A DNA stretch of 64,000 nucleotides from Eremomyces bilateralis CBS 781.70 (lineage: Eukaryota), in the NCBI GenBank assembly GCA_010015585.1, contig ML975153.1, one strand, 5' to 3'. Below are positions 28,772-55,352 of the stretch, piece by piece. Both the position numbers and the translations under genes were made by a program. A model generated the notes under the pieces. It saw nothing but the letters and a program-made list of their open reading frames with translations. It was not told the DNA's origin and searched no databases. Position 1 is the first letter of the stretch, and each line of letters begins with the position of its first letter.

Positions 28772-30181
28772 GGTGCCGACTTAGTGATTGGGAGTCTGGG
28801 TGTAAAAGTCTCCTTTGAGGGGATTGTTGTAGGTCACAAGGGTCGGCGTGCTTAAGTGGAGGATGAAAGTGGATTGGAACGTAGCGTGGAGAGCGAGAAT
28901 GGAGGAAGTGGCTCAGCGGCCGTCTTATGCGTAGATATAGCTGGGGTTACGGAATGCGGGAATGTAGCCAAGCCTTGCCTCGGTCCTAAAACTATTATTA
29001 CGGACGTACTGGTATCGGATGGTGAAATAATTAATCTAAGAAGAGAATGGGATTGCGTGATGAGGCATGTTTGGCCCCTTAATCTTAGCAGGTGCGTCGA
29101 GCCAGCGACTCTTTCGTTGCGTAATGGTGTGAAGAGAAAAGGTGTCGTGTGAAGCTGAATATGAGCATGTTACAAATCCATTCAACTTGCTCCTCATCTT
29201 GAGGCTTGAACCCTGATATTTGTTGGATTCATTGATTGATCACCCAGCCTCCCGCCACAGCGCAGACTTAGTTCGCAGTTGTATCCGGGGATCGCTGCAA
29301 GGATAGTACCTAGTCATTGGGCGACTGGCACGCAAGTGAACGTAGATGCAACGTGTTTCAAGGCTCTAAATTAAATTCATAACTACTCGATATTGTTCTC
29401 GGTGCCCATCAATACTGCTTCGTTTGAAGTATCACCTGCTCAGGATACGATAAGGGCCCTTGGTCCCCGCTACTCCATGTCCAAGCAATCCCCACAGCGC
29501 TGGTACATCATCAAGATGGAGCACAAGTCGGGTATTCGGCATCCCAATACCTGTATCTGTACAGTATGTCGATATATACCTGGCCCAGATTCTGGTATGT
29601 ACGTATATCAAGATGATTAAGGAACAGTTGAGACTCGAGAGACGCATCACGGGATGTGGTGAACGAGCAGAGCAAGATGATGTCACTCTTCATAGTTTGT
29701 TTACATAAGGTATTTGATGCCTTGCCGACTCAGGCATGATGTCACATTATGTGCCTAGCCTACGCCGCACGTGGTTGGCCAGTCTACCTGAGTTGGCTCT
29801 AATATTCACTGATTTAGGTGTCGTCCCCATGCCGACGCACGTGCGGACCTGCGGGGCATCACAGGAGGACATTTGAAATAAGGCCACAAGGCCCAATAAG
29901 GCACCTAGCTAGACCCAGACGTCACTCCCTCGAATTGTTTTGAAGCAGATGGAGCAGTTAGTCCAGTCCAAGCTCACACATGTACCGACACTGGCCAGTA
30001 TCTCCGCATATTTTATGTGTATAACGGTCTTCATTGTGTATAGTCTCTGCCCTGGAATATGTACCTATAGTTTGCGAGACAATCTTCCTTCAAGCCCCTC
30101 CCTGAGATCGAAGGAACATTGAACTGCTACCGAAGCATCGTGTGAACGTCCGCCCGTCCCATCGACAATAGCGCTGCAACA

Positions 30182-32985
30182 ATGGCTTCGTAAGAACCAT
30201 GAAGCTCAAATATATATTGCTATATTTCTAACGATATATAGCAATATCCTCGCTGTCCCTTTTCGCCGCACCCATTCCGTCTCACTCTCCGATGCGATCA
30301 AAGAATACATCTCCTCCAAATATGATCAGCACCCCGATATGTTCAAGCAGGATCTCGAGACGATCGATTATCTTCGAACGGCGGCGGTACAGGCGATTGA
30401 TCCCCATATCACCGGGATCAAGAAACTGCAGTCATACGCTGCTCAGCTCATTTGGTTGGGCGGGAAGTTTCCAATAGACGTATGAGACAGAGAACGTTGG
30501 GTGCAGATCCTCGCTGACGGTACCATTCAGATCGGCGTGGACTTTTCATGGTATCCCGCCCTGGGTTACAATCTCCAACGGCCTGGTTTGTCTTCCTCAG
30601 ATCGGAGTTTGCTGCTTGCCAACTGACGATCTTCCAGTTTCGCAGAATAATGTCAGGTTCGAACTGGCGAACGTCCTTTTTAATCTCGCCGCCATGTATT
30701 CGCAGTTGGCTGTATCGCTCAATCGAACCACGTCCGACGGACTCAAGACCGCATGCAACTACTTCTGCCTCTCAGCAGGAGTCCTCTCCTACCTTCGCAC
30801 TGACATCATCCCCGACATGCGAGCCTCACCCCCTGACGACATGGACACCTCGACGTTGGAGTGCGTGGAACAATTGATGCTTGCCCAAGCTCAGGAATGC
30901 TTTTGGCAGAAGGCCGTCAAGGATGGGCTCAAAGACGCGTCCATTGCGAAGTTGGCTGCGAAGGTGTCGGACTTGTATTCCGATGCTGTAGAGTGTGGCG
31001 TCAAGTCTGACACTATAAGCAGCGAATGGATCCATCATATGAATGCGAAGCATCATCATTTTGCTGCTGCTGCTCAATATCGCGCTGCGTGCGACTGCTT
31101 GGAAAAGCGCAAGTACGGTGAAGAAGTCGCAAGACTCATCGATGCTGTCAGTTGCGTCAACGAGGCTCTGAAAGAAGCCCGTTACGTAAATAAGACAGTG
31201 CTGGGGGACCTGAATGGCATAAAAAACCGGGTACAAGAGGACCTGAAGAGGGCCGAGAAAGATAACAACATGATATATCTACGTGAGTGTCTTTTAAGTA
31301 CTCCCCACTCATCTCATTGACATGAAAACAGTGCCGGTGCCTCCAAAGAGCGAGCTTAAAACCCTTGACCGGGCGACCATGGTGTCCTCAAAGGTGCCAA
31401 AGGAGATATTCGAAGCCACATCTATGCTGGGAGAGAACAGCGACCTTGGTCATCCCTTGTTCAGCAAGCTTGTCCCTTACTCGGTTCATGTTGCTGCGAG
31501 TATATATGCAGACCGAAGGGACCGGTTGGTGAACCACGACATCGTGGACCAATTAGAAGATATGACAAATGCGATTCATCGGTATGTAGGATTTCTCTAA
31601 CATCGATGTTCGCGGCTTACTCGATAATCAGCGAGCTGAGTTCCTTAAACCTACCGGGCTCCCTCCAGGCGTTGGAAAAACCGCTTGGTCTGCCTTCAAC
31701 TCTGCTCTCGCATGCCGAAGAGATTCGGCAGCAAGACGGCGTGGTTCGACTACGGAGATCCATTGCTGAGACCGAGAAGCTAAGACATGGTGACCGGGCA
31801 GTATTCCAAGAAGGCGTGGATCTGCTCCGTGGCGAGATCGAGGAAGATGAGAGGGCTCGGCAAAAGCATGGCACAGTTCGATGGACACGACCAACGTCAG
31901 AACTTGCCGTCCCTAAGCTTTACGGGCAAATACAAGAGATCGATGGATACTTCTCGGCGGCAAATAGTAGCGATACCCTCATCACGTCGAAGTTGAAGGA
32001 GAACGAACGTTTACTGAATCTGCTGAGCGGAACTGATTATGACTTGGAGAAATTCGTACCGAGCAGTCGAAGGGTCGTCATGACACCGGCAGTCGAGCGA
32101 GAGTCCAGCAATCTTCGTGCATGCTTAAACGATTTGACCCGCTTGGAAAGCAGAAGGAGACGAAAGATCGAAGGGCTCCGTTCAAAGGCCAAACAGGACG
32201 ATATAAGTGGGTTCCGCCTGATATATGATGATAATCGGACACTAATTCATATAGACACCGACCTCCTCCGTGAAACTGCACGTTTGGAGCGTGAATACCC
32301 GATGCAGAAGATCGAAGCCGTCCAATTCGAAGGCCTCTTCGAGAAACGACTTCGCTTATACGATTCTGACAAAGCCGCAGTCGAGACTGAACGCGAGGAG
32401 CAGGATGGCCTCCTGAAGAACCTACATGCGACGAACCAAGCCTTTGTCAATGCGAGACGAGGGGAAAACTCGACCAAGACGCGAGAAGATGCATTGCAAA
32501 GCCTTGAGAATGCGTTTTACAAATACAAGGAGATCATATCGAACCTCCATGCGGCCCGAAAATTCTATAACGATCTCGCCAAGATTGTAACTAGGTTTCG
32601 AGACGACTGCAAAAACTTTGCATATCAAAGACGAATGGAAGCGTCAGAAGTGGAAGGGTATGTCAGCGTTGTCTCAGTACCTTTTATCAGCAGCACAGCA
32701 GCTAACGGTTACAGCGATCTGGCCAATGCCATGTCCGGCATAAACCTACAACAAGCTGCCAATTTGCAAAACGAACGGCTAGCCGAGGCGCAGGCTCCTT
32801 CGTACCGCCAGCGACCACCGACCGAGAATCAGATTCCAGCACCACAGCCCACCCGGACGACCCTGATCCCGACGCCAGGCGTCTGGACGCCTGAGATGCC
32901 GATACGATTCGGGCAAAATAGCAGTACGTCAGGAAATACGAAGGATGGAAGATGGGATCCTGCTCAGGGGGTGAAGTTTTCATAG
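30182..32985 (+). CDS. palA: pH-response regulator PalA/Rim20 (BRO1 and ALIX V domains; about 7 introns)
   Basis: MAS|NILAVPFRRTH...; FELANVLFNLAAMYSQLA; MLAQAQECFWQKA; KDNNMIYL; LNLPGSLQALEKPLGLP; RKFYNDL. Confidence 0.93.
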
Positions 32986-39510: not shown

Positions 39511-40028
39511 AATTGCCGTCGAAAAGGCCGGTTTATGACGCTGTTTTTGGCAGCATTTCCACATGACCTGGTCATGAAAATCAACCCTTCTCCTCCCCAA
39601 ACACCCCGTAATGCCAAGTGCACGTGACTTTGTCTATCAGTTTCGTGAGTTTCATGAAAGTCACTGAATTTAGAAACAGGAGATGCGAACCCGCAAGCGG
39701 GTTTCACTGAAAGAGAGCCTGGAGGAACGAAGCTAGAGTTTGCAGTTTTCGAATCTCCCCCCCAAAAATAAGAGCTCGAATTATATTCAATAGAAGCATC
39801 ACAAAAGGATTGAAATTCCGTTAGTGTTCTGGGGTTGGCTTTATGGTAGTACGGAAGGCTAGTTTAGTGATTGGTTGCTCCGCTGAACTCAAATTCGATC
39901 AAGTATCAATATCGTTTAGTCTACAAGGTCTGCAAATACTTATTCCATTCAAGCTAAACTAAAGAAGAAGAGGAGAGGAGGAAATCTCTCTCTATTATAC
40001 GGGAGATGAACCTTTCCTCTACTTCGTG

Positions 40029-40058
40029 AACACGTCTATCAACACGTCTATTAACACC
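40029..40058. repeat. 12-bp tandem repeat AACACGTCTAT(C/T), about 2.5 copies
   Basis: Read directly; lies upstream of the helicase relic. Confidence 0.8.
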
Positions 40059-40399
40059 TAACTGCCTCCTGATAATCCTCTCACCACATCTAGCCTCATC
40101 CACACATATATCGGGCACAGATCACAGGCCTCGGACCATAACAAGTGATACGATATTCGTCGGGTAGGGAAAAGAGTCAGTACTAATAGCAAAAGTAAAG
40201 TAATGAGTAGATCCTTTACAATGGCTGGAGGGCTTTTTTGTCAGTAAGGTATAGTTTAGTTTGAATATCTCTGCGACCTACGTCTTGAAGCGCTCGAGTT
40301 CATTCGCCATATTCTACGAGATCTTGTCACGATTGAAGGACAAGCCGTACCAGAAGAGACTGAATATATTCATCAATTGTCTTTCCACTACAGCCTGTA

Positions 40400-41668
40400 G
40401 GTCACAGCGACCTCGGAAGCGGCGGCAGCCAATATCAATGGGGTCACCATCCATTTCACTTACAGGTTCTTCAAAGATATAACTCGGTCGGCGGGTCGGT
40501 ATGCGGATCTAGAGAGCTTTACGCCGAACAATTTAACCAGCCTCCGCATCGATAGACGAAGCCAGGCCGAGTGGCAGGAAAAGGTCCGACTTATCATCGA
40601 TAAGATTAATATACTGGGTACTTAGACGCAGTACGTAGTGAACGAACAGCTGTGCTGACTGCAACGGAGTATAGACGACTTTGGCAGGATCCCGATTATT
40701 GTCTTCTGCGGGGATTTCTACCAATTTCGTCCGGAACAGAGGCGGTCGATCCTTGTCCCTAGCCATGCTACTGTATAGACCGACGATACATCGTTCCGAG
40801 CAGAGTAAAGGCACTAGCACGATAAGGCGCACGCGCTGTAGAATAAGTTTAACACGGTCGTGATGCTCGACGAATAGGTCCCGTACGGCTAGAGACCCAC
40901 GACTCCAGCAACTCCTCAGGCGGATCCGGCACAGCGTTCAAGATCAGTCCGATATGGATTTCCTGAACCAGACGTGCTACTAGGAAGGTCGACGTATCCT
41001 ATAGGAGTCTAGCATCACGGTTATTACGCTGCTGAATCGGAACCGCTGGAATCTGAACGTCGAAGCTATGCTATCCTTCCAACGCCAAAGGCAAGGCGTG
41101 CTTCGGATTTTCATGTCCAAGCATAAGTAGAAAGATGGCCAGCCTATAGAGGAAGAGGCCCTAATACTGTTAAGTTAGGGAGACGACAGCGCCGTCCTCG
41201 TCCCCGCCATCTTCATGTTCGTCCCGGGGATGTCCATAGCTTTAAATTAAAACACCCACTAAGGCCTGAAGCTGGTCAATGGCGCCCGCTACACGGCGTT
41301 AGACGTCGTCCTCGACCAGACACCCCCCGGGCATCGCGTTAACGCCGATACCATACTCCACCTCGGGCCTCCGGCCGGGATCGTGCTGGCGTCCGAGACG
41401 ACGAGAGACTGCGACTTCGTCAGCATGCCAGCCGGCACCGTCCTCCTGGCGCCCGTCAGCATCAAAATCGACTGCTAAAGACAGCGGCCGTGGCAGATGC
41501 ACGACGTTAGCTAGCGAGGATTACCGTTCGCAGCGGCGTTCGCCTGCACGGATTACAAGGTGCAAGGAAAGACGTTGGGCCGAGTGGTGCTGGAACTTCG
41601 CGGTGCGAGGACGATAAAAATCGATAGGATTATGCTCCTGTCTCGAGCGCGGGAAAGGGACATTATTG
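40400..41668 (+). pseudogene. RIP-mutated PIF1-type helicase fragment (Helitron-like transposon relic)
   Basis: Degenerate motifs VTATSEAAAANINGVTIH, LIIDKINILG (from LIIDEISMLG), FGRIPIIVFCGDFYQFRP, LNRNRW, LVNGA, AFACTDYKVQGKT. At least 9 TAG/TAA stops in the helicase frame plus frameshifts. Confidence 0.9.
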
Positions 41669-41740
41669 TTATGGTCCCAAGCCTGTGGCCTGGGCACTTG
41701 AGTATGGCTGAAGCCACAGGGACGTGGCTAAGTGGATAGC

Positions 41741-41779
41741 ACAAAGGAGATAGGCACAAAGGAGATAGGAACAAAGGAG
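41741..41779. repeat. 15-bp tandem repeat ACAAAGGAGATAGG(C/A), about 2.6 copies
   Basis: Read directly; lies between the helicase relic and the 3' end of the transporter gene. Confidence 0.85.
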
Positions 41780-41936
41780 GTATCTTCTATATCTCGCGCG
41801 CAGAGGCGTTGGGAGGTTTCTTCCTTCTCTCTCTTCAGTTTAGATTAATGGAACTTGGTAATCGTAGACCTTGCGCATCCAAACCGTGTCAGCCTTGTCG
41901 ATCGTTGTTACAGATGGTGACGCTTCTTTCTCACAG

Positions 41937-44825
41937 CTATATAGTCCGGCTCGTTTCACCCTCTCCATGCTGTAGATTGTTGATGTCCAGTCGCTCGTTG
42001 CGGGTGACCCGACCAAATATGGCTGCAAGCTCCTTTCGTGACTCGAATAGCGGCCACTAGTAGTCAAGTATTAGTCGCCGTCACTGTTAGATATAAGGGG
42101 GATACTCACAAAAAGGATGAGAATCAAACTAATGAACACAAATGTTGCGGCTGCGACACACTGTAGCACGAAGAGGCCTCTTGGGTAGACGACGGCGGTG
42201 CCAGCAAGTGGGGCAGGAATAAGGACGACTGAGTAATTTGTAAGCCATAGCTAGGATAAATGTGGAATTGATACTCACGGATGACGAGAAGAAAGAGTCC
42301 GGTGATGATGCGGAAATGAGTCTGCGATGCCTCGAGCTTGGCCACTTCTTTGGCATACTGCGCCTCGGTCGCCGTGGTTCGGCCTCCACCTTCCACCGCG
42401 TAAAGAGCAGGCTCATATGTCAGATCTTTTGACCCAGCGAAGTGACTCTGGCTATGTTGAGGGACCTTTTCGGTTGACCCGGTCGATTCGGTCGACACGG
42501 TCGCTGATTCTGGAACGGCCACGCCACGACCGATGGCTCGGGTGAGCTCAAAATCGAAAGAAGCGGGTTTTATGAGAGACAGCAGTATAGATATGATAGC
42601 GCCACTCCCCAAGGCCGACAGCGAACCCGAGAGGATGACCTTGCTGTCGGTCAGGGTCGTGATAGATACTATCCCCTTGGTGGTAACCGCGGTGACCAGC
42701 CAAGCCACGAAGCCCATGACCAAACCGCCAAGGACCCCCAGGACGGCGCCGGCCTTGTTCAGTCGGGTCCAGCACATCAACAAGCCGATTGGGAAAACGG
42801 CGCCGGAGGTGCAGACGGCCATGAGGTAGAAGAGGAAGTTGAGGTCGAGACCGATGTACGCAAATGCAGTGTCGATGCCAGCGAGGAAGATGGCCCAGCA
42901 GATAACCACTTGGAGAAATCAGTCATGAACGAAGGCGGCCGGGGGAGGACTCACCGGCATGGTTGATTCTCATCATCTGGACATTTGTTGCGGACTTGTT
43001 CACATACTCACGATAGCTTTGAAGATCAGCAAGGGTTTTCCGAGTGTGGGGTGATGTGCTTACATGTCGTAAGAGAAAATGGTCGACACCGCAACCAGTT
43101 GAGCGGACAGCGCGGAAGTCGTTGCCTTAAAATTTTGGTCAGCAAGTGCAACTCAAAGGACATTTCAGACGAACCATGAACGCAATTATGGTATACATGA
43201 CTGGCCCTGCTTTGCCGAGTATTGTCACGCTTGCAAACGGCCCAGCGAGTCCTCTATAAGATGAAAAGTCAGAATGATGCGGTGGAATGGACATAAGAGG
43301 GCACTTACGCGCCAATCTGTGCGAGAGAAAGTCCATTGGGGTAGGTCGGGAAGGCGGGATTCGTTACCAGCGCCCTTGCGGCCAAACCCATCGATGATCC
43401 GATACCAAAGGCGACTATACCGCGGCGTGAGTACGTTGTCATGACCTAGTCTCGAGGGACGTACCTGAGAAGAAGAAACAGCCTGCGAAGATGAAGGCCT
43501 TGCTGGTCCCGGCCGGTCGAGCCGCGATGCTTCGCTGCCAATATGACCTGGTGTCTGCAGTTAGCCTCTTTCCGAGGACTCGAATTGCGGGCCTTACTGG
43601 TCACAAAAGGACAATCCGAAAAAAGACGTGGCCGCCGTGACAGCGTAATCTGTTCCTTTGTCAGTTCAGTCGATGTGGACGGGTGGGCTGGGCCACATAC
43701 ACATGCCGCCTTCACTCCGGAAGGAGAGATAGGACTCATGCCCGTTACCTAGTGCTGGGGCTTCCTATTGCGCGTCAGCCGTCGAATACACCCCTCTAGA
43801 GCATTCTGGAAAGTATTCACCTTGGAAGCTTGGAGGAGAAGGTCGTACAGCTTGCCAGGTGACCCAATGACGTCGCCTCGTGTGTAGGTTGCCAAAACGA
43901 GAACGAGGAGGCACGAAAAGAGTATGCAGCAGTGGAGATAGTCCGCTCTGTGAGTCCTGGTCAGTATCCGCTGGCATTCACGGAGAATAGACGACATACA
44001 CGAAGGTGGCTCGAAGACCACCAGTCAGGACTGTTTAGGTGTCAGTGATGGTTAGACTGGGGTGGTTCGTTGCGGACCGTAGACAACGACTACCAGCGGA
44101 AGCAGCCAGATGGCAGCGTATTCGCTGATACCCGTCAGACCAGCGATGACTCCAGACCCGCCGATGAGAATCTCGCTGCCCACCACAAAGTTGGCAACGA
44201 GGGCGGCGAACATATACGCCAGATGACCAAGAGTGCCGAAGCGGACTTTCGCCACTTGAAGATATCTGCCAACAAGGATGAGTTTGGAACTTGGTATCTC
44301 AGAACTGGCCAGGGGCTTACGTTGAGGCGCCGCTGGCGTTTACCTTGATCTTTGAGGAGATAAATGCGAAAGCTGCGATCTCTGCCTCGTTGTCAGTCGT
44401 CACCTCTTGAGTCCACTTCAACGGCTCCAAACTATACCGACGAAGCCTCCCATGCCAAACCACCAGGGCACCGAGATGCCATAGAGGTAGGTGAGCGTCC
44501 CCGTTTGTAGAAAGACCGCTGCCCACACCCAAGCAGACGTGATACCCACTGACATCCTGCTTGTGCGTCAGTTGCGAGCATCTCGGAAGAAGACAAGTTT
44601 TGACATACATTCCCGTCTTGACGGACCTGGAAGCTGAGGAGAACTCCTCCACCTTCCGGGGGTCAAAGCTGGTGTATCGTTTCTGTACCCAAGTGATACC
44701 GTTCATGAGTACCGCGAAGAACGCACCGCCGACCAAGACTGCATATGGTCAGATATCTCAACTGCGCACCGGGAGAGAGAAAGCTTACTGGTCGCGTATC
44801 CGGCGCTTTGAGGTAGCAGTGACAT
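41937..44825 (-). CDS. DUR3/UreA-like urea active transporter (sodium:solute symporter family; roughly 15-17 introns)
   Basis: MSLLPQSAGYA; EEFSSASRSVKTG; AKVRFGTLGHL; IGSPGKLYDLL; SAQLVAVSTIFSYD; C-terminal WPLFESR...; stop TAG at 41937-41939. Confidence 0.88.
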
Positions 44826-44975
44826 GGTGTTTGATCGTTTTCCACCACAGACTCATTGCAATTTTGATTCTTTGGCTCGTCTCGGAGCCCCATCCTGTAG
44901 ATACTCAAAAGTTATATAGATCAAGAAGAGCAATTGCGCGAGAGATTGTCAGCAAGTTGCAATTCTACACTAAGC

Positions 44976-45069
44976 TCGGCCATCCGAAACACTAATAGAG
45001 TTCGAGACGCAGGGACGAAGAGCCACGCGAGCGGAGCGAAAAGCTTAAGCACTTCTGCCGGCGATCCGA
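44976..45069. promoter_or_regulatory. Two CGG-N4-CCGA inverted-triplet sites in the transporter/TF divergent promoter
   Basis: TCGGccatCCGA at 44976-44987 and CGGcgatCCGA at 45059-45069. CGG triplet pairs are typical Zn2Cys6 binding sites. Confidence 0.55.
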
Positions 45070-45804
45070 GCGCCCCTGCGAAAGGAGTCACCGAGTCAGA
45101 CGCCTTCAATACCATCACCTCAACTTTTGAACTGGAACTGAACAGTGACCATCGATCCGTTCTACTTCAAGTTTGAACACCGAACTCTATAGGATACCAA
45201 TCTCATACAGACCATGCCACTTTGGAGGGTGCTTTTCTCTAGATAATTTTTCTTTATTGTCTTCCTTTTTCCAGGATATGTCTTCGTCTTAGGCTATCGC
45301 ATTGCTAAGGGTAAGACCACAGGCTGTCAGCTTCTTGAAATATAAAACAAGTTGCTGTTCTTGCACAATTTTGTGCAAATTTTGTGCTTAAAGTCAGCAT
45401 TCTTCTTGGGCTACTGTATCCCGTTGTGGTGCCTCCTGAGGGTCTACTTGTCGACTTTAGATTCCCATCGCTGTAGCATCATAATAACATGATTAAAACT
45501 TTTGAGAGCAGCAAGAGCCTTTTGATTGGGGTACTCATTGCAGAGCAACTCCTTTTTGAAGTTGTATATGGTACTAAGTTTGAGTAGGATGGCTCGGACC
45601 AATATGTGAGTCCTCCTGTTGTGGAGCCTATGCCCTCTAGCAAAAAGTAGGCCCGCATAGTCAAAATGACGAACCATTCGCCGATACGCACGCCATCATA
45701 AGATATGGTACCTGGGCGAGGAGTTGAGCTTCGGCCTGATATCTCTTGCCATCTTCTATACGTCGTGGATATGCCTTGTTGGGCTGTGTTACCCGTGTCT
45801 TACC

Positions 45805-48720
45805 ATGTCACAAAACGAGGAGCATGACGAGGTGGTGGACCTGTCCGAGATCCGGTGGAAGATGCTGGTTGCCTGCGATATCTGCAGGCGACGAAAGGCG
45901 CGTTATTGGTTGCTTCTCATATGTATGGTCCTGGCGCTGAATCTTTATTCCTTTATAGGTGCGGTGCGACGGTGAGAGACCGTGTTTGAGATGCAGCAAA
46001 GGTGGAAAGAAATGTAGCTTCTCGACGCGGTAAGTGGCGACGACACCCGCTGCGTATATATCGACTATGATCTGAATACCAGCGACAGAAGACGAGTCGT
46101 GATAAACCCCGAGGACATACGGTGAGCAACGGTTATCTTTACAGTAGTGACCCCCAGCACTGAGGACCGAGACAGGGCCGTGAAGCGGCCTCGAACAACC
46201 CCTTTGTCCCCGGATCACTTGTCCTCGAAGCGGTCGATCTCAAACGTCTCGTCGCCGAGACCTGTATCCTCGTCTGAGCCTTCAAGGGTTCCAACGGGGA
46301 AGGACAGATTAAAGCCAGATGTAAGCAAGTCCTTCTCCTAATCTCGTTCAGGATCGCTGAAAAACGGAACCAGCGGCGAGAGGCCGCTCCCTCCACGCCA
46401 GGCAAAGAGCATCTTCTGCTCATCGACTCGGATGACCAGATCGTCTATTCTGGACCATCGACGGGAATGTCCTTGTTCGCTCGCCTCGGCTTGCTTCACA
46501 CTGTCGAAGTATCTGAGAGCGACAGGACTGTGACGTCTTTTGCGTCTCACTCTGTAGGCGCCTTGGGCATAACGGGAGCCACCACCTCTTCCAGCGACTA
46601 CTTAGATCTTTGCCTGCAACATTGCCCGCAGGAACTCATGTTCAAGTTGATAAACTATCATCTGGGCACTCGTCAGTCCCGTCTTATTTCGGTACTTGAC
46701 TGTCACTGAACAACCTTCTCTTACAGCGATCTTCTTTCCACTACTTCACGCTCCTTCGTTCTTATCTGTAAGGCCACGAATCCATCTAGGCAACAGAGCT
46801 GATCGCTTGTGCAGGAATTTGTCGCCGTAACCCAACGCCGCCTTCCATGTACTGCTCAATATGGTGCACTCCTGATGAGCATCTTTGCTGTGACGGCGCG
46901 TCTGGTCGAAGGTGCCAGAGCCCTCCTTCCAGCGTCGGAGCGCGACCAAGCTGGCGAGAGGTATTTTGAGCTTGCTCAAGACCTTATCAGAACCAGCAGA
47001 AATAAGCTCGACATCCGGCACATTCTCGCTCTTTACCGTTGGTGTGGTCACTGCGTTTCCCATTTCAACTTGGCTGACTCGATGCGTAGACCTTGCATTG
47101 TATGCCGAAGGTTGCACCAGTTCTGCGAGTCAGTTATTGCTCTAGACCGGTAAAGGTGTATTGTTGACAAAGTTCACAGGCTCCGTCTCTAGCTTCGTTG
47201 CAGAAGCAGTTGGTCTGGCCTTTACCACGGGGCTTCACCGTAGTACGAATGAGTTCAAGATGGACCCGGTGACGCTACAGGTGAGCCCTCCGCCCCCTCG
47301 CGAGGCAAGTAAGATGCTAAGCGGCAGGTCCGTACCCGCCTATTTTGGGCCTTATATACGCTAGATACCTCCCTAACCTATTCTCAAGGGCGGCCACCAC
47401 TCATCAGGTTGTCAGAGTGTAAGTCCGCCGATGTCTCGTGCCGCACCGTGGAGTAGCTGAGTAAAAATAGGCAGCGTCGACCTTCCTGTCATTGTCGACA
47501 ACGAATACATAAAAAAAACGGAGATTCTTCCCCAGCCCGAGGGAAATCCGCCACTGGCGATGGCCGCAGCTGTCAAGATGATCGAGATATACATCGCCCT
47601 CGAACAGGTGCGTTGTGATCCCATGCTATTGGATCTCATACTAAGCTGTGCTGTAGGTGCTGTCTGCAATCAACACCCCATCAAGAACACCTGCCGCGGC
47701 CTTTTCTCTGAACGACCCTCCGCTTGACCGCAGCGACCTCCTAAAACGGGCGCAGAAACGACTGGACGAGGTACGTATTTGGCCACGGGGCGAGGAGAAG
47801 ACTGAGGTTGAGCATTGTTAATGGACTGGTTTGCACAGATTGAACGAGATCTCCCGCCATATTTATCGCAAGTCCTTGTGACAGCCGATCCGGCCTCAAG
47901 CTTCTTCTACTCTTGCCGCGTCCGGACGGTCCTCCAATTTGTTCGGACTCTTATTGCCCGTCAAGCCCTCATTGACGAACTAGAGACGAGTCCGATGTCC
48001 TCCAAGAAAGAGACTAGCTTCGCCACATCGGAAGCCTGCGGCCTCTCGGTAGACACCGTGAAGACGTATTCACGCTTACGGCACTTGGGCCTTCTTCGCT
48101 TTTGCGGGTTCCACGCGATATCCCACGTCATTGCCGCTGCGCATACGCTGATCGCGTGTATGTTGAGGAGCTTCGATCTCGCCTTTGAGCATCGACCTGA
48201 CCTGCTGACCGCCATTGACATCCTGCTCGTCTTCTCATCTACATTTCCGAACGTCGAGACGGTCGTCCAGCTCCTTTTTCAGTTGTCTCACAGTTTGGAT
48301 CACAACTATGGTTCGAATAGCAAGAGCGAGGCCATTGCCGTCCGAGTCCTCGCTTCGAAAATGGCGCGGCCCGCTTCGAGAGTCGAGCAGCCTCTCTTGA
48401 AGCCAGCATTTTCCTGGCAGTCCTGGAATGGTAATTCTACTCAATGGGTTGATCCTGAACACCCGTCCAAGCACATTGTCGGGACTGGGACGTCTCACGC
48501 CTCCTCTAGCTACACTCAACTATCTGTCTCGGACACTGACTTTTCGCCTACTCCTCGGGAGGACACATCGGCCTTCAGCACGACTAATGACGCTTCTGCT
48601 TGGCTTTCTCTAATAGCTACGGGGCCAGTCGAACCCGAATGGACATATAATGATTCAGATCATGCGGTGTGGGGGGACAGCTTTTCATTTCTAAACGACG
48701 GATTGATTAGCAAATGGTAG
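45805..48720 (+). CDS. Zn(II)2Cys6 transcription factor with a fungal TF middle-homology region (about 12 introns)
   Basis: ACDICRRRK|VRCDGERPCLRCSKGGKKCSF; AFTTGLHR; RTRLFWALYTLD...QGRPP; long last exon ending at TAG 48720. Confidence 0.88.
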
Positions 48721-48947
48721 GAGCTTCTAATATATCATAACCAATTGCTTCATACTCGTTTTAGCCAATCCACTGTCGTTGTCTAAAAACTCGGAACTTC
48801 TTCGTTTCCCATGACCCATGAAAACTCATACTGCCCTTGCAACCCACTACCATGCTACAGCGCAGAATCTCTGACCGAGATACGTATGAACAGTGGGCAG
48901 ATGTAATAATGGAATTGAACACTCATCGTGCCTTACCGAGACGGTTT

Positions 48948-50783
48948 CTAGTCGATAAGCTCCCGAATATGCTGCTTCCAGGCCGGCCACGCTCCCCATC
49001 GCTCTTCAGCGTCAACTTCCTCTGGTCCTCCTTCGCCAATCAGGCTAAGCAACCTCTCAGCATATTCGAATCTGCACGGATGATCAGCTTGAGCACCACC
49101 AAAACCACGGCAGACTTACTCTCCCGGATGGCCGAGAATCAAGGTCGAATGCGAATCTGACTCCTCTTCTAGATGAGGTGTCAGCTCGAGTGGCGTACCC
49201 GACCAGTAGGCCGCTATTGCTCGAGCTTGCATCTCGGAAAACGGCCAGGGGATGGCTTCGGCGTGGAGCAGTAAGAATGCGAGTGTGGGATCCGGTAGGT
49301 AGAAGATCTGGTGTGCATCGAGATGATGAACGCCTTCTTTCGGGTCAGTGCCGGATGCGTACTTCATTGAGGGGACTCACGGTGCCCGCCTTCCAGAGTA
49401 GCCTGACCCACCAAGTTCTTTGGTGGTCGGCGATGCTCTTGAGGGACATACGGGTCCCTCAGCAAGGGTGCTTTATCGAATGGAGAGTCCGACGGGAGGC
49501 AGAACTCAAAGCGGAAAAGGAATCCGGTAGCAAATACAATCACCTATGGTTGTCAACTCTGCAGGTAGACTAAGTGCCGCGGGAAAGATCTCACGTCCAC
49601 GTCATCCAGAATCTCTTCCGAGACAGTGATGATCCTACCAGTACCGGAATCGAGAGAGGGTGGCTCGACGGTCCGTATTGGTGCAACATTCTTGATATAT
49701 TCGGTCCATCCTTTCTCGCGTTCGGTGTCATACCGAGGCTTGCTTCTGAGAGAACGGTACACTCGGCGTGGTGCCAGGGGCGACTCTTCGACACAAAGCA
49801 TGCCGAATTCTCGCACAAGATCCGCACCTGCATTGTTAGCGGAGACGACAAGGACGAGAAAGGTTGCTCTCACTCGAGGGTCCGGCGCCCATCACCATCA
49901 CGGTCTATCCATTTTTCAGCTTGCAGTCGCGGGAAAGATGCGGAGATGGACTTACCTTTCCAGCAAACGCTTTCGCCTGTCGGTACCATCTTGAGTGCAA
50001 AATTTCCCCTTTCCAGGCCCACAGGTTGTCAATCCATGGGATGAATGGCCTAGAATCCGATCCGTTCGCGACAACGATATTGTCAAACTCTTCTTCAAAG
50101 ATCTTTCCCACATCTGGCGACTTGCTGGTCGCAGATGGCGACCACTCTATGAGCCATCTTTTGCTTGAAGCACGATCAGGGGGTGTATGCCGTACCCGAG
50201 TGACCACCCGGTTGAGTTTGATGTGACTGGCGTAGGTGGCGGCGTGGTTTTGTTGATACCGATAGATAACGTCATACGTTGGAGACTCTGCTGTGCCTTG
50301 GGCATAAGGGTGCGAGCGATATGGCATGATATCCTTGACAAGCCAACAGTGAGCACGAATTTTGCAGAAAGCACTTATTGACACTCACTCGAGGCGTGTT
50401 GGCCGTGACGCCAGCATATATAGGGGTTGGAGCCGGCGCTGGCTTACCAGACCGTTCCAGGTCTGTCAGAGCAACGGCATGGCCAGCCTCGTCGAAAGAG
50501 ATTCGGCATGGTGGCGGCGTTGGGTCAAAGTTCCTGTATAAATCTCCGTCAGCGCAAGGGGTCCCAAGCAAATCATTCGAGTGCGACCCGACTCACCAGA
50601 GACCACCTACACTGTCGCGTGCCTCGTACGCCACGACATCGAAACCTTTACGCTTGAACTGCTCAATGGCTCCCAGACCTCTTCATTTCGACATCAGCTC
50701 TTGTTTTGTGAATTTCACCAAAGTTGCACTCACGCGGGGCCGCAACCTATGATGAGGACCGAAGGTCGCATTTTGACGGTCAT
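48948..50783 (-). CDS. Flavin-containing monooxygenase (class B, Fmo1/thiol-specific monooxygenase-like; about 8 introns)
   Basis: FAD motif IIGCGPA|GL, VGGLW, FMO fingerprint WKGEILHSRWY, NADPH motif VMGAGPSS, FATGF, FYLPDPTLAF, PWPFSEMQARAIA; stop TAG at 48948-48950. Confidence 0.9.
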
Positions 50784-50949
50784 CGCTGGTGGTCGTATCC
50801 CAAGTCGGGTTGCTCGCAAACATGGCACTGAAGATATAGCTGGAAGAGCCTCGAGGCATGCACATTATTATCCGATCCACTGCTCCAGGTAAAATCCCGT
50901 CCGTCTACTACCACAAGCTCCACAGTTCAGCTTGTCGTGATCGTGAGCT

Positions 50950-50997
50950 CGGCAGAGCCGAAGCACGCAACTGCCCGCCTGCCCTCGGATCACCGAG
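50950..50997. promoter_or_regulatory. CGG-N5-CCGA and CTCGG-N4-CCGAG sites in the FMO/rhodanese divergent promoter
   Basis: CGGcagagCCGA at 50950-50961 and CTCGGatcaCCGAG at 50984-50997. Confidence 0.55.
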
Positions 50998-51161
50998 ATG
51001 GCAACGAATTCTTGCGACTGGCAAGGCGCTTTGGCGGCTTGTCCTTTATTGACAATATTGTCATTGGTATTTATGAGATAGCAATTCTCAGAAGCGGCCA
51101 TTGATGGTTATTTTTCTTTTCTGTGTCTTGAGACGTGACAACTAATTATCGAGGCTAGTAA

Positions 51162-52333
51162 ATGACAACGAAGTTCAGCATGCCAGTACCACTCATTATC
51201 CCCCCAACGTCCTCTCTTATCGCTGAGCCCGATGCCATTGTCCTAGACGCGTCGTGGCTTTATGAGCCCGATCCACCAACACGGAACGCTTATGAAGAGT
51301 TTCAATCAGGTCCTCGTTTCCCAAACGCGCGATTTTGGGACCTGGACGCGGTGTCTGAGCCTCATCCCGATGGGTACGCCCTGATGCTCCCTTCACCAGA
51401 ACGATTCGCCGCGTTTGCAGGCAAGTACGGAGTCACGAAGGATTCGCATGTCATCGTGTACGACGGCGAAGGCCTCTTCGCCGCTCCCCGGACAGCATGG
51501 ACGTTCAAGGTCGGTTACCTGCGACCAAGAACATGAGAGCTCACTGACCTGTTGACTGGATGGAACAGGTTTATGGGCACGAGAAGGTGTCAGTGATTAA
51601 TGGTGGCCTACCGCGCGCGAAGAAGGAGGGTGTCAAGCTCGAGACCGGGCCGCCAAAACCCGTCGAAGTACGTCAGCCTGCACCACTTTGAGGCTCGGCT
51701 AAAGGATCGATGTGCACAGGAGACCAAATATCCCGTCCCAACCGTGGACCACAATGCTGTTGTCCGTAAGTGTTGCGTATCATATGTATGGACCGGACTG
51801 ACCACCATGTAGAGTTCGACGAGGTGTTAAGGCTCACCCACCGAGCGTCACCCTCAGCCGACAGCACTTTGCTGATAGATGCGAGGCCTGTGTCATCCTA
51901 CCAGGACGGCCACATACCCACGTCTCTCCTTCTGGATTTTCCCTCCTCCTTGCTTCAGGACCCAGCCAATTTCACGTATCTCCGAAGCCCCGGAGACCTG
52001 AAGGAGTACATAGCCGAACAGCTTGGTCAAGACAAGTTGGATCAGATCCTCTCTCGCGAAGTGACAGTCGTCAACAGTGAGTTCGAGCATTTCAAAGAAT
52101 TGTATCATTGAGCACGAGTGCTGACAAGGGTGACTAGCTTGCGGAGGTGGCCTCTCGGCGGCGATAAACTGGTTGTCTCTCATGTCCCTTGGAGTAGATT
52201 CTCGACTCTATGACGAAGTGAGCAACTTTTGTCCAATTTCGTTGCGATATAAACTGATCGATTCCTGTAGGCTTGGGGTGGCTATTCCGCCCGGCAGGGT
52301 ACTCCTACAGTATCAGGCCCAAGTCCTTTGTAG
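51162..52333 (+). CDS. Tandem-domain rhodanese / 3-mercaptopyruvate sulfurtransferase-like protein (5 introns)
   Basis: VLDASW, RFPNARFWDLD, MLPSPERF, APRTAWTFK|VYGHEKVSVINGGLP, LIDARP, GHIP, catalytic loop TCGGGLSAA, LYDE|AWGGY. Start at 51162 or 51180. Confidence 0.9.
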
Positions 52334-52350
52334 AGCTCACAGCTCCTGCA

Positions 52351-52822
52351 TCAAGCGTCATCCACAGTCTGCGCCTCCCAGATTCCAGTCACAATAGGCT
52401 TCCCATCCCTCTCTTCCACCTTTACGATCGTCGTCGCGCTCTGCTTAAGTTCCTTCCCATCTTCCTTCCCCTTGGTCACGTAAGCCGTCCATTGCCCAAC
52501 AACACCTGTAGAGCCGGAGTCGTTTCTAGTCACAATGTTGAGGTCTTTGATCTTGACAATAGCTGCGGTGAAGGCGGAGCGAAATTGGGTGGTAATAAGT
52601 GTGACAAATTCGGAACTAGTCAGGGGAGTGCCGTTGATCTAGATAGACAGATGACCTGAGCATAGGCGCAGGTGACGCAACGGAAAGGAAGCAACGTACA
52701 TTAATGTTGGCATCTGCGGCAAGCTCAGTGGCTAGCACTGACGCTGCAAGGATATCGTCGGCCTGGAAGAGGGTGCGGGTGAAGAAGGAGTCAACAAAGT
52801 CGGCGACTGCGGGTCGAGACAT
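52351..52822 (-). CDS. Small (about 136 aa) hypothetical protein, possibly SnoaL/NTF2-like fold (1 intron)
   Basis: MSRPAVADFVDSFFTRTLFQADD...ANIN|INGTPL...GVVGQWTAYVT...IVKVEERDGKPIVTGIWEAQ. N-terminal helices followed by beta-strands; the fold is an inference. Confidence 0.7.
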
Positions 52823-52983
52823 CTCTCAAGGTAGTGGACGGTGGCTATCGCTGTTGCAAGCAATGACAAAGATTGATGTTGTTTAACCCGTAACGTGTGT
52901 ACGTAGGGCGATAAAGCCATTTAAGCCGATTGCTATTCTTGCGTGATTCTGTGAAATTAGCCCGATGCAATGGTGGCTACTGG

Positions 52984-54100
52984 TCAAGTTCGGATGGCCG
53001 AAGTCGTACGTAATGTCAAAGACCGATGGTACAACAAGGCCGAATGACAGCTCGAGGGATGGTAGGTCCATAGTACCTGGAGCCGACCGTGGGCGAGGAC
53101 CTTCTCTACCCTAGCTATCGGAGGCTGATCGCCGTCCTCCTCGCCTTCGCATGTGACGACAATATAGTCTCCAACACGGACCTCTCTCCCATCACCTGGA
53201 GTTCGGGTTAGTAGGAGAATCGACCGAAGGGCTTCGATAATCACACTTACAATGAACCCGGCCAGTAGCTGCTTTTCGACGGCCACTGTTCGCGCTTACC
53301 TGTAAGGTTGCTTTTAGAAGCCGAGACGATGTCATTGTCATCGTCGCTGGAAACGATCGGTAGCTTTCCTTTCCCCAAAGATCCGGGAACGTCAGCGACA
53401 GAGAGCGGTTCAGGCGCAGACCGAGTTATGCTGGCTAGCCCGTCGTCATCATCACGACGTGGCATGTACGCAGCGCAGAGGCTGTCACTTAACTCTGTCG
53501 TGGGGCTGCGTGCGCAGAAGTCATCGCCGGATTGCTCTGCCCCGTCTTCTATGTCTGGCACGATCAGTCCCGGCCAAGGACCGCCAGTAGCGCCCAGCCC
53601 ACTACCATCTCTAATATTTTCGTGTCTAGGAGCGCGATCGCCATCTAGGCTTCCGTTTCCTTTGTGTTCCTGATGCGCTGGGCTTGCTGCCCGTCGAATG
53701 CGATCGGGACGGTCTGCAGCAATCGCCCCTCGAGACATCCTAAAGAGTTCTTGGGGGGTGGGGGAGTCATCTCCATCGCTGCTGCTGGTCTCGACGCCTT
53801 CAGTATGACCGCTGGCCCCTCGAGCCGCTTGATCACTGTTCTGCGCAGAAGCGGGAGCTGCCGCCAATAAACCTTCTTCTGTTAGCACTACCAACCGATT
53901 ACTCTTAATGGACCGATGAACTCACCATGGCCCCGGATTGGGCTACCTGTAGCCGGCCGGCGCGCTGAGCAATCGTCTTCGCCACTGTCGCCTTCGGTAA
54001 GGCCTATAATTTCCACGCTACCCAGGCGGACTCAACGGCTCTCCGTAGGGTGCCGACCTTGCTTATAAGCTGTTGAGATCTGCGGAAGATCGGAAGCCAT
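52984..54100 (-). pseudogene. Degenerate gene with a low-complexity N-region and a BAH-like C-terminal domain
   Basis: ATG at 54100 with an in-frame TGA at 54032-54034; spliceable exons lead to GDGREVRVGDYIVV...PPIARVEKVL..GRLQVLWTYHP. Confidence 0.45.
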
Positions 54101-55352
54101 AGGAGCGTCGTTCCGCAGAGGTTGGTAAGGGACGAAAATAGTCATGGGAGAGATTGCCATAGATAGGGCAAAGTGCAGAGATGGGCTACGGTAGAGGTTT
54201 GTAGGAGGAGCGGGGGAATTGAATTAAGGATTTCATGGGAGCAGGAATGGCGGCCCTTAAGCATCCGGCACCGGTGCGGTGCAAGATCCTCCTCACCCGC
54301 CCTCTCATCGCCATGGATCAACCGATCCGCTGCTTGCATGCGCAACCCCAGCATCTACCACTGATTTTGCCTCGCCGCTCTTGTTGTCAGTCCGCAATTT
54401 GCAAGAGTGTGTGTATTCTGCATCCAAGGCATGAATATGCACTCCTGTCTTTCTTAGTGTGCCGTCAGGGATATTAGGGGTTATCCTAAAATAACGGGAG
54501 GTGAAGAGGCGGTGGGTTAACGTTAACAAGTTCTGCTTAAGCAGCTTTCATTTCCTTTCACTTTTCTATCCACGATCAGTAAGGGTTCAGATGTGATATG
54601 CGACGACACTATCGCTTCCATCCACACAGTCAAAGTTTGAAGAAAAAGTGATCCGCGGTTCCAAAAACCTATCGTCGCTGGATTTGAGATCGTATGTACC
54701 ACCCTTAACCAGAAGATAAAGGGGAGGCTGCGTCTGTGGGAGCGCAAGGCCGTGAGGAGAAGGATTGGGGTGGAGGCAATCTCAATGGCCGTGCTAGGAC
54801 GCTAACCTCGGGCAGTCAGAGAGAGGAACGCAAAGCCTAAAATTGACGCAGGCCAAGGGCTTCGGTCAGTGGTTCGTCACGCGGAGAAGTTCAGCTGGTC
54901 ATGTCCAGTGAGGATCATGTTAGAATACGACAGCGGAATCCTCCATCCAGCTGAGGGGAAATGCAAAATGACAGGGACGATCGAGACAAGGGGTAAAACT
55001 GCTCACCATCGGCATGAAAGGGCCTTTAAGAGGGGAGAACAGTCAGGTCGCATGAATCGAATGAAGGGGGTAGGCGGGGTGGCCGCTGCGAGGAACTATC
55101 CGGTGGATCGTCAACGCTCCTCACGCGGGCAGACATAGGTCACAGGGGCGAAAGTGGGCAGAATGGGCCGACAGAAATGAAGGGGGGAGACAAGGAAGGC
55201 GGACGGGAAATGAATTGGTGAATGGGAAAAGATGGAGGAGAGCGGGTTGGCGAGAGGGGGGGATAGAGGTATTTATGTTTGAACGTTTTGGGAGGGTTGA
55301 AAACGGAAAAGTGCGCTAACCCCGAACCGGCACGCTAATCCAAAAGAGGCAG

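Follow-up and report, generated by a model that had tools for sequence, protein, structure and literature searches.

A five-gene block shared among unrelated fungi: probably an undescribed route for handling a small compound that contains sulfur or nitrogen

The window, the whole 64-kb stretch of Eremomyces bilateralis CBS 781.70 DNA analysed here, held five intact, intron-rich genes between positions 41937 and 52822. They encode a DUR3-family symporter, a Zn2Cys6 regulator, a class B flavin-containing monooxygenase (FMO), a tandem rhodanese and a 136-aa NTF2-fold protein. This raised the question of whether the genes form a unit and which compound such a unit would take up and convert. Because many unrelated fungi carry the block with its genes in the same order, it probably represents a pathway, not described before, that acts on a small compound containing sulfur or nitrogen. 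No description of the cluster was found in the literature searched. The features of the locus were as follows.

41896..53019, no strand: shared 11.1-kb block, delimited by the X4 contig of another organism
41937..44825, minus strand: DUR3-family (SSS) symporter paralogue, 689 aa, 17 exons, 16 GT-AG introns of 46-56 nt
44826..45804, no strand: divergent promoter region of transporter and regulator, 979 bp, two CGGNNATCCG sites (44977, 45059)
45805..48720, plus strand: Zn2Cys6 transcription factor, 755 aa, 13 exons, carries CDICRRRKVRCDGERPCLRCSKGGKKC
48948..50783, minus strand: class B flavin-containing monooxygenase, 473 aa, 9 exons, spliced translation equal to P0001
50784..51179, no strand: divergent promoter of FMO and rhodanese, 396 bp, one CGGTGATCCG site (50986)
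51180..52336, plus strand: tandem-domain rhodanese sulfurtransferase, 293 aa, 6 exons, active-site loop CGGGLS
52351..52822, minus strand: NTF2-fold protein without cysteine, 136 aa, 2 exons (52700-52822, 52351-52638)
52823..53019, no strand: region upstream of the small gene, reaching the edge of the shared block, CGGCCATCCG site at 52991

An earlier note on this DNA had claimed five intact genes in this arrangement, and the gene models at these positions and strands bore this out. Intactness was judged from exact or homology-guided models for all five genes. Two of the five matched annotated E. bilateralis CBS 781.70 proteins letter for letter, the transporter P0050 ('SSS family solute:Na+ symporter [Eremomyces bilateralis CBS 781.70]') and the FMO P0001. 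Position 41937, the start coordinate in the earlier note, is the stop codon of the transporter. The rhodanese was modelled against P0023 of Exophiala dermatitidis, with which it shared 84.3% identity. Eight of the 12 regulator introns coincided with GT..AG joints of spliced contigs from run X3, and the positions of the remaining four were set by the reading frame; the first intron (45898-45958) reads GC..AG. RNA evidence consisted of spliced X3 contigs covering the regulator and one X3 contig on the transporter. A reading of the short open reading frames as decayed pseudogenes was rejected, since 42 short introns across the five genes account for them. Transporter and regulator are divergent, as are FMO and rhodanese, whose common promoter had been claimed at about 400 bp, close to the measured length. 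Regulator and FMO converge with a spacing of 227 bp, and the convergent rhodanese and small NTF2-fold gene have their stop codons 14 bp apart.

Clustering was also found elsewhere, against the earlier note's condition that its reading would fall if these genes were clustered nowhere else. In 17 other species from both fungal phyla, at least two cluster genes carried locus tags no more than three numbers apart, adjacency being deduced here from gene numbering, not from DNA. Such proximity was present in Kwoniella pini (I206_107327/29/30), K. dejecticola (I303_106912/14/15), Kwoniella sp. B9012 (V866_004700/02/03), K. shivajii (IL334_005768/66/65), Exophiala sideris (PV11_06649/51), Talaromyces atroroseus (UA08_03103/05), Capronia epimyces (A1O3_04678/81), Stylonectria norvegica (g2398/g2401) and Rhodosporidiobolus lusitaniae (JCM8547_002614/16). 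FMO and rhodanese were consecutively tagged in eight species: K. pini, K. dejecticola, K. mangroviensis, Kwoniella sp. B9012, Kwoniella sp. CBS 6097, Cryptococcus sp. DSM 104549, K. shivajii and K. bestiolae. The metagenome contig L001 held all five genes in the order and orientation of the window, with 82-84% nucleotide identity including introns and spacers, and a divergent FMO/rhodanese promoter of 285 bp. Record 14 of run X4 (65,398 nt) aligned with positions 41896-53019 at about 93% identity, with 765 differing letters and 113 gaps, and was unlike the window beyond them. The block borders coincided, with similarity ending at 53004 for L001 and at 53019 for X4, and at 41896 on the other side; the flanks differed in each of the three organisms. 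The claim that the five genes form a unit was thus upheld by the 17 species, L001 and X4, and recurrence of the same block elsewhere speaks against a chance arrangement. Transporter identity between Eremomyces and K. pini, which belong to different phyla, was 79.3%, and such very high identity points to transfer of the entire block. The earlier note had also placed the genes inside a mobile element. The analysis shows a block with coinciding borders in different surroundings in three organisms; no recombinase, transposase or terminal repeat was found, so that 'mobile' is valid in an evolutionary sense only.

Direct reading of the regulator sequence showed the Zn2Cys6 motif and, as its middle-homology motif, 'GRPPLI'. 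All five CGGNNATCCG matches in the 64-kb window fell within the block: four in the three promoter regions and the fifth (49125) in an FMO exon. About 2.6 matches were expected in the whole window, and the observed count is not significant by itself, as at least five matches occurred in 15 of 100 shuffles. The motif was defined post hoc from two inspected promoters, and therefore only the third promoter, whose site at 52991 took no part in the definition, is an independent test. In L001, the orthologous transporter/regulator promoter contained CGGTCATCCG at 11456, the FMO/rhodanese promoter an identical site at 5866, and the counterpart of the 52991 site reads CGGCCTTCCG. A CGG-N4-CCG-type site common to all three promoter regions fits the proposed control of the cluster by its own regulator.

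Membership of the transporter in the DUR3 family was confirmed by its match to the solved AtDUR3 structure 9j7c (E 1.1e-102, residues 3-526); the match to Pfam SSF had an E value of 2.6e-14. It shares family and fold with the urea/H+ symporters AtDUR3, Saccharomyces cerevisiae Dur3 and Aspergillus nidulans UreA. PMC11840088 lists W93, W95, T98, Y117, Q124, N305, Y315, W338 and Y461 as urea contacts of AtDUR3 and E402 as the proposed proton residue. Aligned to these nine contacts, the cluster transporter reads W, W, V, F, E, F, Y, F and F. Three contacts were kept and six replaced (T98V, Y117F, Q124E, N305F, W338F and Y461F), and E402 was changed to Q; W93, W95, Y315, D312 and P474 were retained. 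The complete signature of 12 positions was found in 16 of 25 aligned clade members; the other nine differed or were gapped in at least one position and were mostly truncated models. Urea is unlikely to be the main substrate, because the pocket has lost hydroxyl and amide groups and gained one Glu, and these changes recur across the clade. The remodelled pocket would be compatible with a thiocarbonyl analogue and equally with a small cationic amine, an amidine or a guanidinium. According to PMC9783183 and PMC4077062, 2-thiourea inhibits UreA, and the latter describes three UreA paralogues of unknown specificity in A. nidulans.

The monooxygenase scored 68.8 bits against Pfam FMO-like (cut-off 22) and carried all four class B motifs, GCGPAG (FAD), WKGEILHSRWY (FMO-identifying), GAGPSSAD (NADPH) and ATGF. 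Its closest solved structure was the yeast-type class B FMO of Schizosaccharomyces pombe (PDB 2gv8/1vqw; 2gv8 with E 7e-32 over residues 8-418), a distant relationship. The claimed class B assignment was supported. Unlike the S. pombe enzyme, the cluster FMO always has a rhodanese as its partner and sits in a cluster with transporter and regulator.

The rhodanese likewise corresponded to its description as a two-domain protein with a catalytic Cys: Pfam found two Rhodanese stretches in P0023, and the Cys and the loop glycines were invariant in 18 of 18 aligned homologues. It resembled the tandem rhodaneses Escherichia coli SseA (1urh, the closest solved structure, E 3.1e-28), bovine rhodanese, human MPST, yeast Tum1 and the Yarrowia complex I subunit ST1, with E values from 3e-28 to 9e-23. 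All share two domains with the catalytic Cys in the C-terminal one. The loop CGGGLS presumably resembles the MST-type loop. MSTs have substrate-binding arginines, one of which is probably missing from the cluster rhodanese, because the segment from 'DAR' to 'GHIP' is shorter than in SseA. In contrast to the named tandem rhodaneses, the cluster type is joined with the NTF2-fold protein into a single 476-aa protein in an annotated model of R. lusitaniae.

The small protein had only 25 relatives among 1.84 billion representatives. For the E. sideris orthologue, which is 85% identical, the AF2 model (pLDDT 94.5) matched NTF2, LinA and SnoaL-like proteins in Foldseek with TM 0.6-0.7. Its designation as SnoaL-like therefore stood for the fold only; no Pfam family, SnoaL included, was found for the 136-aa protein, and no catalytic residues were assignable.

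Taken from the sequences, a tentative reading is that the block serves the inducible uptake and conversion of a small, urea-sized soft nucleophile other than urea, most likely a thiocarbonyl or another reduced-sulfur nitrogen compound, for example thiourea. Our first guess is a thiourea-like thiocarbonyl; aminothiols, amidines and thioimidazoles compete with it. The DUR3 paralogue would import the compound through a pocket that lacks the groups holding the urea oxygen and has a gained carboxylate. The FMO would S-oxygenate it to a sulfenic-acid-level intermediate, and the catalytic cysteine of the rhodanese would take the sulfur as a persulfide, so that sulfur would be salvaged and cellular thiols not drained. 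The cysteine-free NTF2-fold protein may offer a pocket for the remaining carbon-nitrogen product or help the rhodanese, and the Zn2Cys6 factor would activate all three promoter regions via CGGNNATCCG-type sites. The hand-over from FMO to rhodanese is our own construction, because we know of no thiourea pathway that uses a rhodanese.

Cysteamine, cystamine or a similar small aminothiol or polyamine-like disulfide is an unlikely substrate. It would need a cation-importing DUR3 paralogue, an FMO acting as thiol oxidase in the manner of yeast FMO and a rhodanese acting on persulfide or thiosulfonate sulfur. Aromatic residues together with Glu are typical of amine-binding sites, and the aromatic pocket, which has gained a Glu where AtDUR3 has Q124, shows this pattern; polyamines are also among the compounds transported by S. 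cerevisiae Dur3. Fission yeast provides the nearest solved FMO, and yeast-type FMOs oxidise cysteamine, cysteine and glutathione. However, the retained DUR3 residues suggest a urea-sized substrate, and the dioxygenase or aminotransferase required for this route is missing from the block. Less probable again is a sulfur-free substrate, an amidine, guanidine or other urea analogue, which the FMO would N-oxygenate while the rhodanese had an accessory or redox role. A planar cation would be well placed in the aromatic pocket with its Q124-to-Glu change. Some FMO homologues showed weak matches to the Lys/Orn N-hydroxylase family in precomputed Pfam results, and P0001 itself matched it with E 0.0093. 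The pairing of FMO and rhodanese in eight species and their shared divergent promoter, here and in L001, argue instead that sulfur transfer is central, and the invariant rhodanese Cys also stands against a sulfur-free route.

Quite improbable is the degradation or desulfurisation of a larger natural thione, ergothioneine or another 2-thioimidazole, to a desulfurised betaine and recovered sulfur. Methimazole, an imidazole-2-thione, is a standard FMO substrate, and an aromatic cage could accommodate a trimethylammonium group; against this, the replacements in the pocket (W to F, Y to F, N to F) bring in residues of matching size and do not open it, and relatives of EanB-type sulfurtransferases were absent among the 22 solved-structure matches of the rhodanese. 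The DUR3 pocket is moreover small and occluded around urea (PMC11840088). Accidental or hitch-hiking neighbours without a common pathway are disfavoured as very improbable, given the conserved order and orientation in L001, the tag adjacency across two phyla, the rhodanese-NTF2 fusion model and the motif common to all three promoter regions.

The five-gene block has an organisational parallel in conserved fungal catabolic clusters such as the nicotinate hxn cluster of A. nidulans (PMC5746545, PMC8478523), where a permease, a pathway-specific zinc-finger regulator and enzymes likewise adjoin and promoters are divergent. The gene set of the block differs from that of the hxn cluster. Fungal catabolic clusters such as hxn and this block are alike in their patchy species distribution.

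The five genes of the block were modelled with their introns as follows.

41937..44825, minus strand: transporter CDS, 16 GT-AG introns of 46-56 nt
45805..48720, plus strand: Zn2Cys6 regulator CDS, 12 introns
48948..50783, minus strand: FMO CDS, 8 introns
51180..52336, plus strand: rhodanese CDS, 5 introns
52351..52822, minus strand: CDS of a small protein of predicted NTF2 fold, 1 intron

The spliced minus-strand models of the transporter and the FMO matched the annotated E. bilateralis CBS 781.70 proteins P0050 (689 aa) and P0001 (473 aa) letter for letter, so that the window derives from this strain or an identical genome. Two gene pairs of the block are divergent, separated by 979 and 396 bp. 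The rhodanese gene and the small gene are convergent, with stop codons 14 bp apart (52337-52350), so that their transcripts must overlap. This arrangement of two divergent pairs and a convergent small gene is exactly the one described in the earlier note. In an initial view of the block region, three stop-to-stop ORFs of more than 170 aa, and no more, were present between 41.9 and 52.8 kb, and Pfam matches were obtained for 2 of the 50 ORFs scanned. A reading as decaying pseudogenes, based on the short ORFs and few Pfam matches, was ruled out by the exact mapping of the annotated proteins. The decayed look results from the high intron density, about 7.05 kb of coding sequence being split by 42 introns, or about 6 per kb. 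Housekeeping genes elsewhere in the window (compared at 1345-7020, 16705-18504 and 30123-32982) were uninterrupted ORFs of 1099, 695 and 600 aa or had about two introns. The high density relative to the flanking genes hints at an origin of the block in an intron-rich lineage. Contigs of the sequencing run X3, a run guessed to be RNA, contained GT..AG joints that show spliced transcripts. At least 8 of the 12 regulator introns matched such joints, among the 15 of 56 X3 joints listed. The first regulator intron (45898-45958) was GC..AG. One X3 joint skipped 108 nt (47281-47388) where the reading frame wants a 47-nt intron (47281-47327). Alternative or aberrant splicing may be involved, since the conserved 'RTRLFWALY...' segment would be lost. 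A 7457-nt X3 contig aligned on 47837-49071 and 53249-54837, on both sides of the rhodanese/small-gene junction.

Single exons of the FMO, rhodanese and transporter genes were used as queries and returned 22, 27 and 25 proteins, respectively. NCBI locus tags within three numbers of each other, read from the numbering, placed cluster genes next to each other in 17 species.

Species with adjacent locus tags of cluster genes
Transporter, FMO and rhodanese: Kwoniella pini, K. dejecticola, Kwoniella sp. B9012, K. shivajii
FMO and rhodanese: K. mangroviensis CBS 8886, Kwoniella sp. CBS 6097, Cryptococcus sp. DSM 104549, K. bestiolae
Transporter and rhodanese: K. heveanensis, Kwoniella sp. CBS 9459, Capronia epimyces, Exophiala mesophila, Stylonectria norvegica
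Transporter and FMO: Cryptococcus depauperatus, Exophiala sideris, Talaromyces atroroseus
Transporter, with a rhodanese/small-protein fusion model two tags off: Rhodosporidiobolus lusitaniae

By the usual tag spacing, one more gene, itself unlisted, would fit between transporter and FMO, which is the place of the regulator in the window. Further same-contig cases were recognised from the matching size of the source contigs in Geosmithia morbida, Exophiala viscosa, Meredithblackwellia eburnea and Plicaturopsis crispa. The metagenome contig L001, the one locus obtained with protein P0076 out of 370 pattern matches, held all five genes in the order and orientation of the window. Its identity to the window was 82-84% in four nearly contiguous alignments from 53004 to 41968, introns and spacers included. 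A 65 kb contig of sequencing run X4, carrying a different organism label, aligned on 41896-53019 of the window with 765 differing letters and 113 gaps, and its ends were unlike the window. The cover of X4 comprised 41896-53208 and short repeat matches beyond, and was not taken as absence of the flanks. Clustering elsewhere, which the earlier note had proposed to search for, was thus found by tags as well as in the DNA of L001 and X4. On the side of the small gene, the two comparisons, which are independent, agreed on the border (53004 and 53019), and the block had different surroundings in all three places. The neighbours of the block in L001 are a DUF2838 gene and an SMC gene; in the window, that place is taken by multi-copy repeats and an expressed gene that is unrelated.

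The cluster had also been called mobile and placed inside an element. The first part holds on the evolutionary scale, on which the block has moved as a unit, with the same block occurring in different contexts in distant taxa. As to the second part, Pfam matches to a recombinase or transposase were absent from the scanned ORFs above the length cut-offs (50, 27, 63 and 49 ORFs), terminal or direct repeats of at least 25 nt spanning the block borders were not found, and no 10-mer was common to both border zones; a look at repeats across the window likewise yielded nothing informative. Housekeeping genes lie on both sides. On these grounds, the block is not shown to be, or to lie within, an autonomous element. 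Between Eremomyces and Kwoniella pini, identities were 79.3% for the transporter, 74.1% for the FMO and 62.7% for the rhodanese; the values for Exophiala dermatitidis were 87.9%, 84.6% and 84.3%, respectively. The cross-phylum identities of the cluster proteins are unusually high. In the FMO tree, all ascomycetes together with Kwoniella and Cryptococcus formed one group (support 96), with Vanrija, two Pucciniomycotina and Plicaturopsis outside. The ascomycetes were one clade in the transporter tree (100), in which Exophiala mesophila grouped with the Hypocreales Stylonectria and Geosmithia (99), apart from the other Exophiala. These quick trees without outgroup paralogues point to transfers, the number and direction of which are not fixed by them. 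A transporter labelled Aureobasidium melanogenum (P0051) was at zero tree distance from that of Exophiala dermatitidis (P0052), which suggests assembly contamination or a very recent transfer.

Multi-copy repeats flank the block on both sides, and the left one abuts the border at 41896. In sequencing run X1, which may be where this DNA comes from, contig depths added up to 440-6600 at 39617-41891 and 55077-55343 versus about 160 in other places, and short contigs and loose ends were numerous. A coding signature was not found in either of these two repeats. Between the block and the right-hand repeat there is a spliced expressed gene (53249-54837, minus strand), the introns of which are near 53871-53923 and 54836-55005. 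No Pfam family matched its ORF of 224 aa, and the gene was absent beside the block in L001 and the X4 contig.

The transporter contained the Pfam SSF domain PF00474 (E 2.6e-14, above the cut-off) and was similar to the AtDUR3 structure 9j7c (E 1.1e-102 over residues 3-526). As proposed before, it belongs to the DUR3 branch of the sodium:solute symporters. Residues of AtDUR3 were mapped onto P0050 via the HMMER alignment.

AtDUR3 residues named in the available text of PMC11840088 and the corresponding residues of P0050
W93, urea contact: W
W95, urea contact: W
T98, urea contact: V
Y117, urea contact: F
Q124, urea contact: E
N305, urea contact: F
Y315, urea contact: Y
W338, urea contact: F
Y461, urea contact: F
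D312, proton site: D
E402, proton site: Q

Three of the nine urea contacts of AtDUR3 are kept in P0050 (W, W and Y), whereas six are changed. All but one of the changes take away a hydroxyl or amide, and the exception brings a carboxylate. D312 and E402 form a titratable pair proposed for proton coupling in the same text; P0050 keeps the former, but has Q in place of the latter. This Q was present in 23 of the 25 aligned clade rows, the other two being one gap and one row without a usable residue. The pocket signature was complete in 16 of the 25 aligned clade members; the other nine, mostly truncated models, differed or were gapped. Judged by these residues, the transporter is a DUR3 paralogue in its own right, for which urea is an unlikely preferred substrate. 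Aspergillus nidulans has three UreA paralogues, for which the available text of PMC4077062 gives the specificity as unknown.

The FMO and rhodanese assignments of the earlier note were confirmed. P0001 scored 68.8 bits against the Pfam FMO-like family (gathering cut-off 22). Class B FMOs are marked by the FAD motif GxGxxG, the FMO-identifying motif [FW]xGxxxHxxx[YF], the NADPH motif GxGxSxx[DE] and ATG[YF]. All four were present, as GCGPAG at 13, WKGEILHSRWY at 200, GAGPSSAD at 225 and ATGF at 312, and the nearest solved relative was the S. pombe FMO. The Exophiala dermatitidis rhodanese P0023, 84% identical to that of the window, comprised two PF00581 stretches. C247, at the catalytic Cys position, G248, G250 and A253 were invariant in 18 of 18 sequences, and the active-site loop of the window rhodanese is the six-residue CGGGLS of the second domain. 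The nearest solved relatives were E. coli SseA, a Yarrowia complex I subunit and bovine rhodanese. MSTs such as SseA and MPST have substrate-binding arginines of their own. The window rhodanese has 'DAR'; compared with SseA, the segment after it is shortened and poorly aligned.

The small protein was cysteine-free and had 25 relatives among 1.84 billion representatives. Its description as SnoaL-like was upheld by the fold and not by family searches. P0075, P0081, P0087 and P0090 matched no Pfam SnoaL, DUF4440 or NTF2 family at E up to 1, chance-level rows aside, and the window exons matched no Pfam family. The AF2 model of the 85%-identical E. sideris orthologue (pLDDT 94.5) showed three helices and a curved sheet. 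Foldseek related it with probability 1.00 and TM 0.6-0.7 to NTF2, LinA, limonene epoxide hydrolase and SnoaL-like proteins, and protein-atlas features pointed likewise to SnoaL/DUF4440. The modelled fold is that of an NTF2/SnoaL-like alpha+beta cone. In Rhodosporidiobolus lusitaniae, the annotated 476-aa protein P0099 (JCM8547_002614) united the NTF2-fold protein with a tandem rhodanese and a presequence-like N terminus, either as a genuine fusion or because two same-strand genes had been merged in annotation.

For the regulator, the expected Zn2Cys6 motif was recovered as CDICRRRKVRCDGERPCLRCSKGGKKC near the N terminus of the spliced model, fitting CX2CX6CX5-12CX2CX6-8C. It is interrupted by the first intron, and single regulator exons, across which the motif is split, gave no match to Pfam Zn_clus or Fungal_trans. 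The two divergent promoters contained the CGG..CCG pairs CGGATCACCG, CGGCCATCCG and CGGCGATCCG, which have CGGNNATCCG in common on one strand. All five occurrences of the CGGNNATCCG pattern in the window fell within the block.

44977 and 45059: CGGNNATCCG sites, transporter/regulator promoter
49125-49134: CGGCCATCCG site within FMO exon 8, kept in L001 at 7700-7709
50986: CGGNNATCCG site, FMO/rhodanese promoter
52991: CGGNNATCCG site, 170 bp upstream of the small gene

A stretch of 64 kb should contain about 2.6 occurrences, and five were reached in 15 of 100 shuffles; the total is therefore unremarkable, and the weight lies on the placement. The site at 52991 is the sole independent test because it was not used in defining CGGNNATCCG. 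L001 had corresponding sites in both divergent promoters and in the FMO gene, and the one-letter variant CGGCCTTCCG at the equivalent of 52991. The site in FMO exon 8 may be conserved merely as coding sequence. Shared k-mers of 8 or more were not found across all four promoter copies.

Taken together, the block encodes a putatively dedicated importer of DUR3 fold with a putative non-urea pocket, a predicted soft-nucleophile oxygenase, a predicted cysteine-persulfide-forming sulfurtransferase always adjoining the oxygenase, an NTF2-fold protein linked with the rhodanese via adjacency and one fusion model, and a probable pathway-type regulator. It appears to be a conserved, horizontally spread cluster of catabolic type, a known kind in fungi, with a transporter that looks clearly re-tuned. 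The substrate would be small and urea-like, with the urea oxygen swapped for a group needing no hydrogen-bond donors and with amino groups that favour a carboxylate. A thiocarbonyl fits this description and also suits the FMO and the rhodanese. After import, the FMO would S-oxygenate the thiocarbonyl and the activated sulfur would be captured on the rhodanese cysteine. FMO-oxidised thioureas give rise to a thiol-consuming redox cycle, which such capture would avoid. The NTF2-fold protein would handle the carbon-nitrogen remainder. This class of explanation, with uptake, S-oxygenation and sulfur capture of a small thiocarbonyl-like substrate, is plausible and falls somewhat short of probable. 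Thiourea-type compounds specifically are a doubtful choice of substrate.

Among the rival substrates, aminothiols or polyamine-like disulfides are unlikely. Non-sulfur amidines or guanidines are quite unlikely. Larger thiones such as ergothioneine are improbable. That the five genes have no common function is hardly credible beside their conservation as a unit. For thiocarbonyl uptake and desulfuration, the furthest-reaching version would be the first eukaryotic pathway dedicated to thiourea-class thiocarbonyls. It would form an 11-kb block passed between ascomycetes and basidiomycetes, with a DUR3 paralogue whose recognition has shifted from C=O to C=S, an FMO activating the sulfur, and a rhodanese that, helped by the NTF2-fold protein, takes it as persulfide. 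This version is offered as a speculative proposal with a rather low chance of being correct.

If the block is a working pathway, the DUR3 family, in which no specificity is known for the fungal paralogues, would gain a new substrate class, flavin monooxygenases would be linked directly to sulfurtransferases at the enzyme level, and the movement of a complete regulated pathway from one fungal phylum to another would be clearly exemplified. The cluster might account for the ability of fungi to tolerate or degrade thiourea-type compounds, among them those formed when dithiocarbamate fungicides break down, and it might reveal a sulfur-scavenging route. Direct tests are feasible, since the cluster is compact, has sharp borders and occurs in yeasts that can be cultured. 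A Penicillium decomposing thioureas was reportedly described in 1970. In the literature covered, which included few subscription journals and so does not prove absence, no description was found of the cluster, of the Cryptococcus neoformans small-protein relative CNAG_06518 or of fungal genes for thiourea use or catabolism. Within that scope, the remark of the earlier note that a characterised fungal cluster of this composition is not known still stands.

The C. neoformans relatives of the small protein (P0078 and P0100-P0110, e.g. CNAG_06518) were 129-130 aa long and 52% identical, with a shortened N terminus. The hit lists for the FMO, rhodanese and transporter of this clade contained no C. 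neoformans member. The small-protein relative in this species may be a remnant of a lost cluster.
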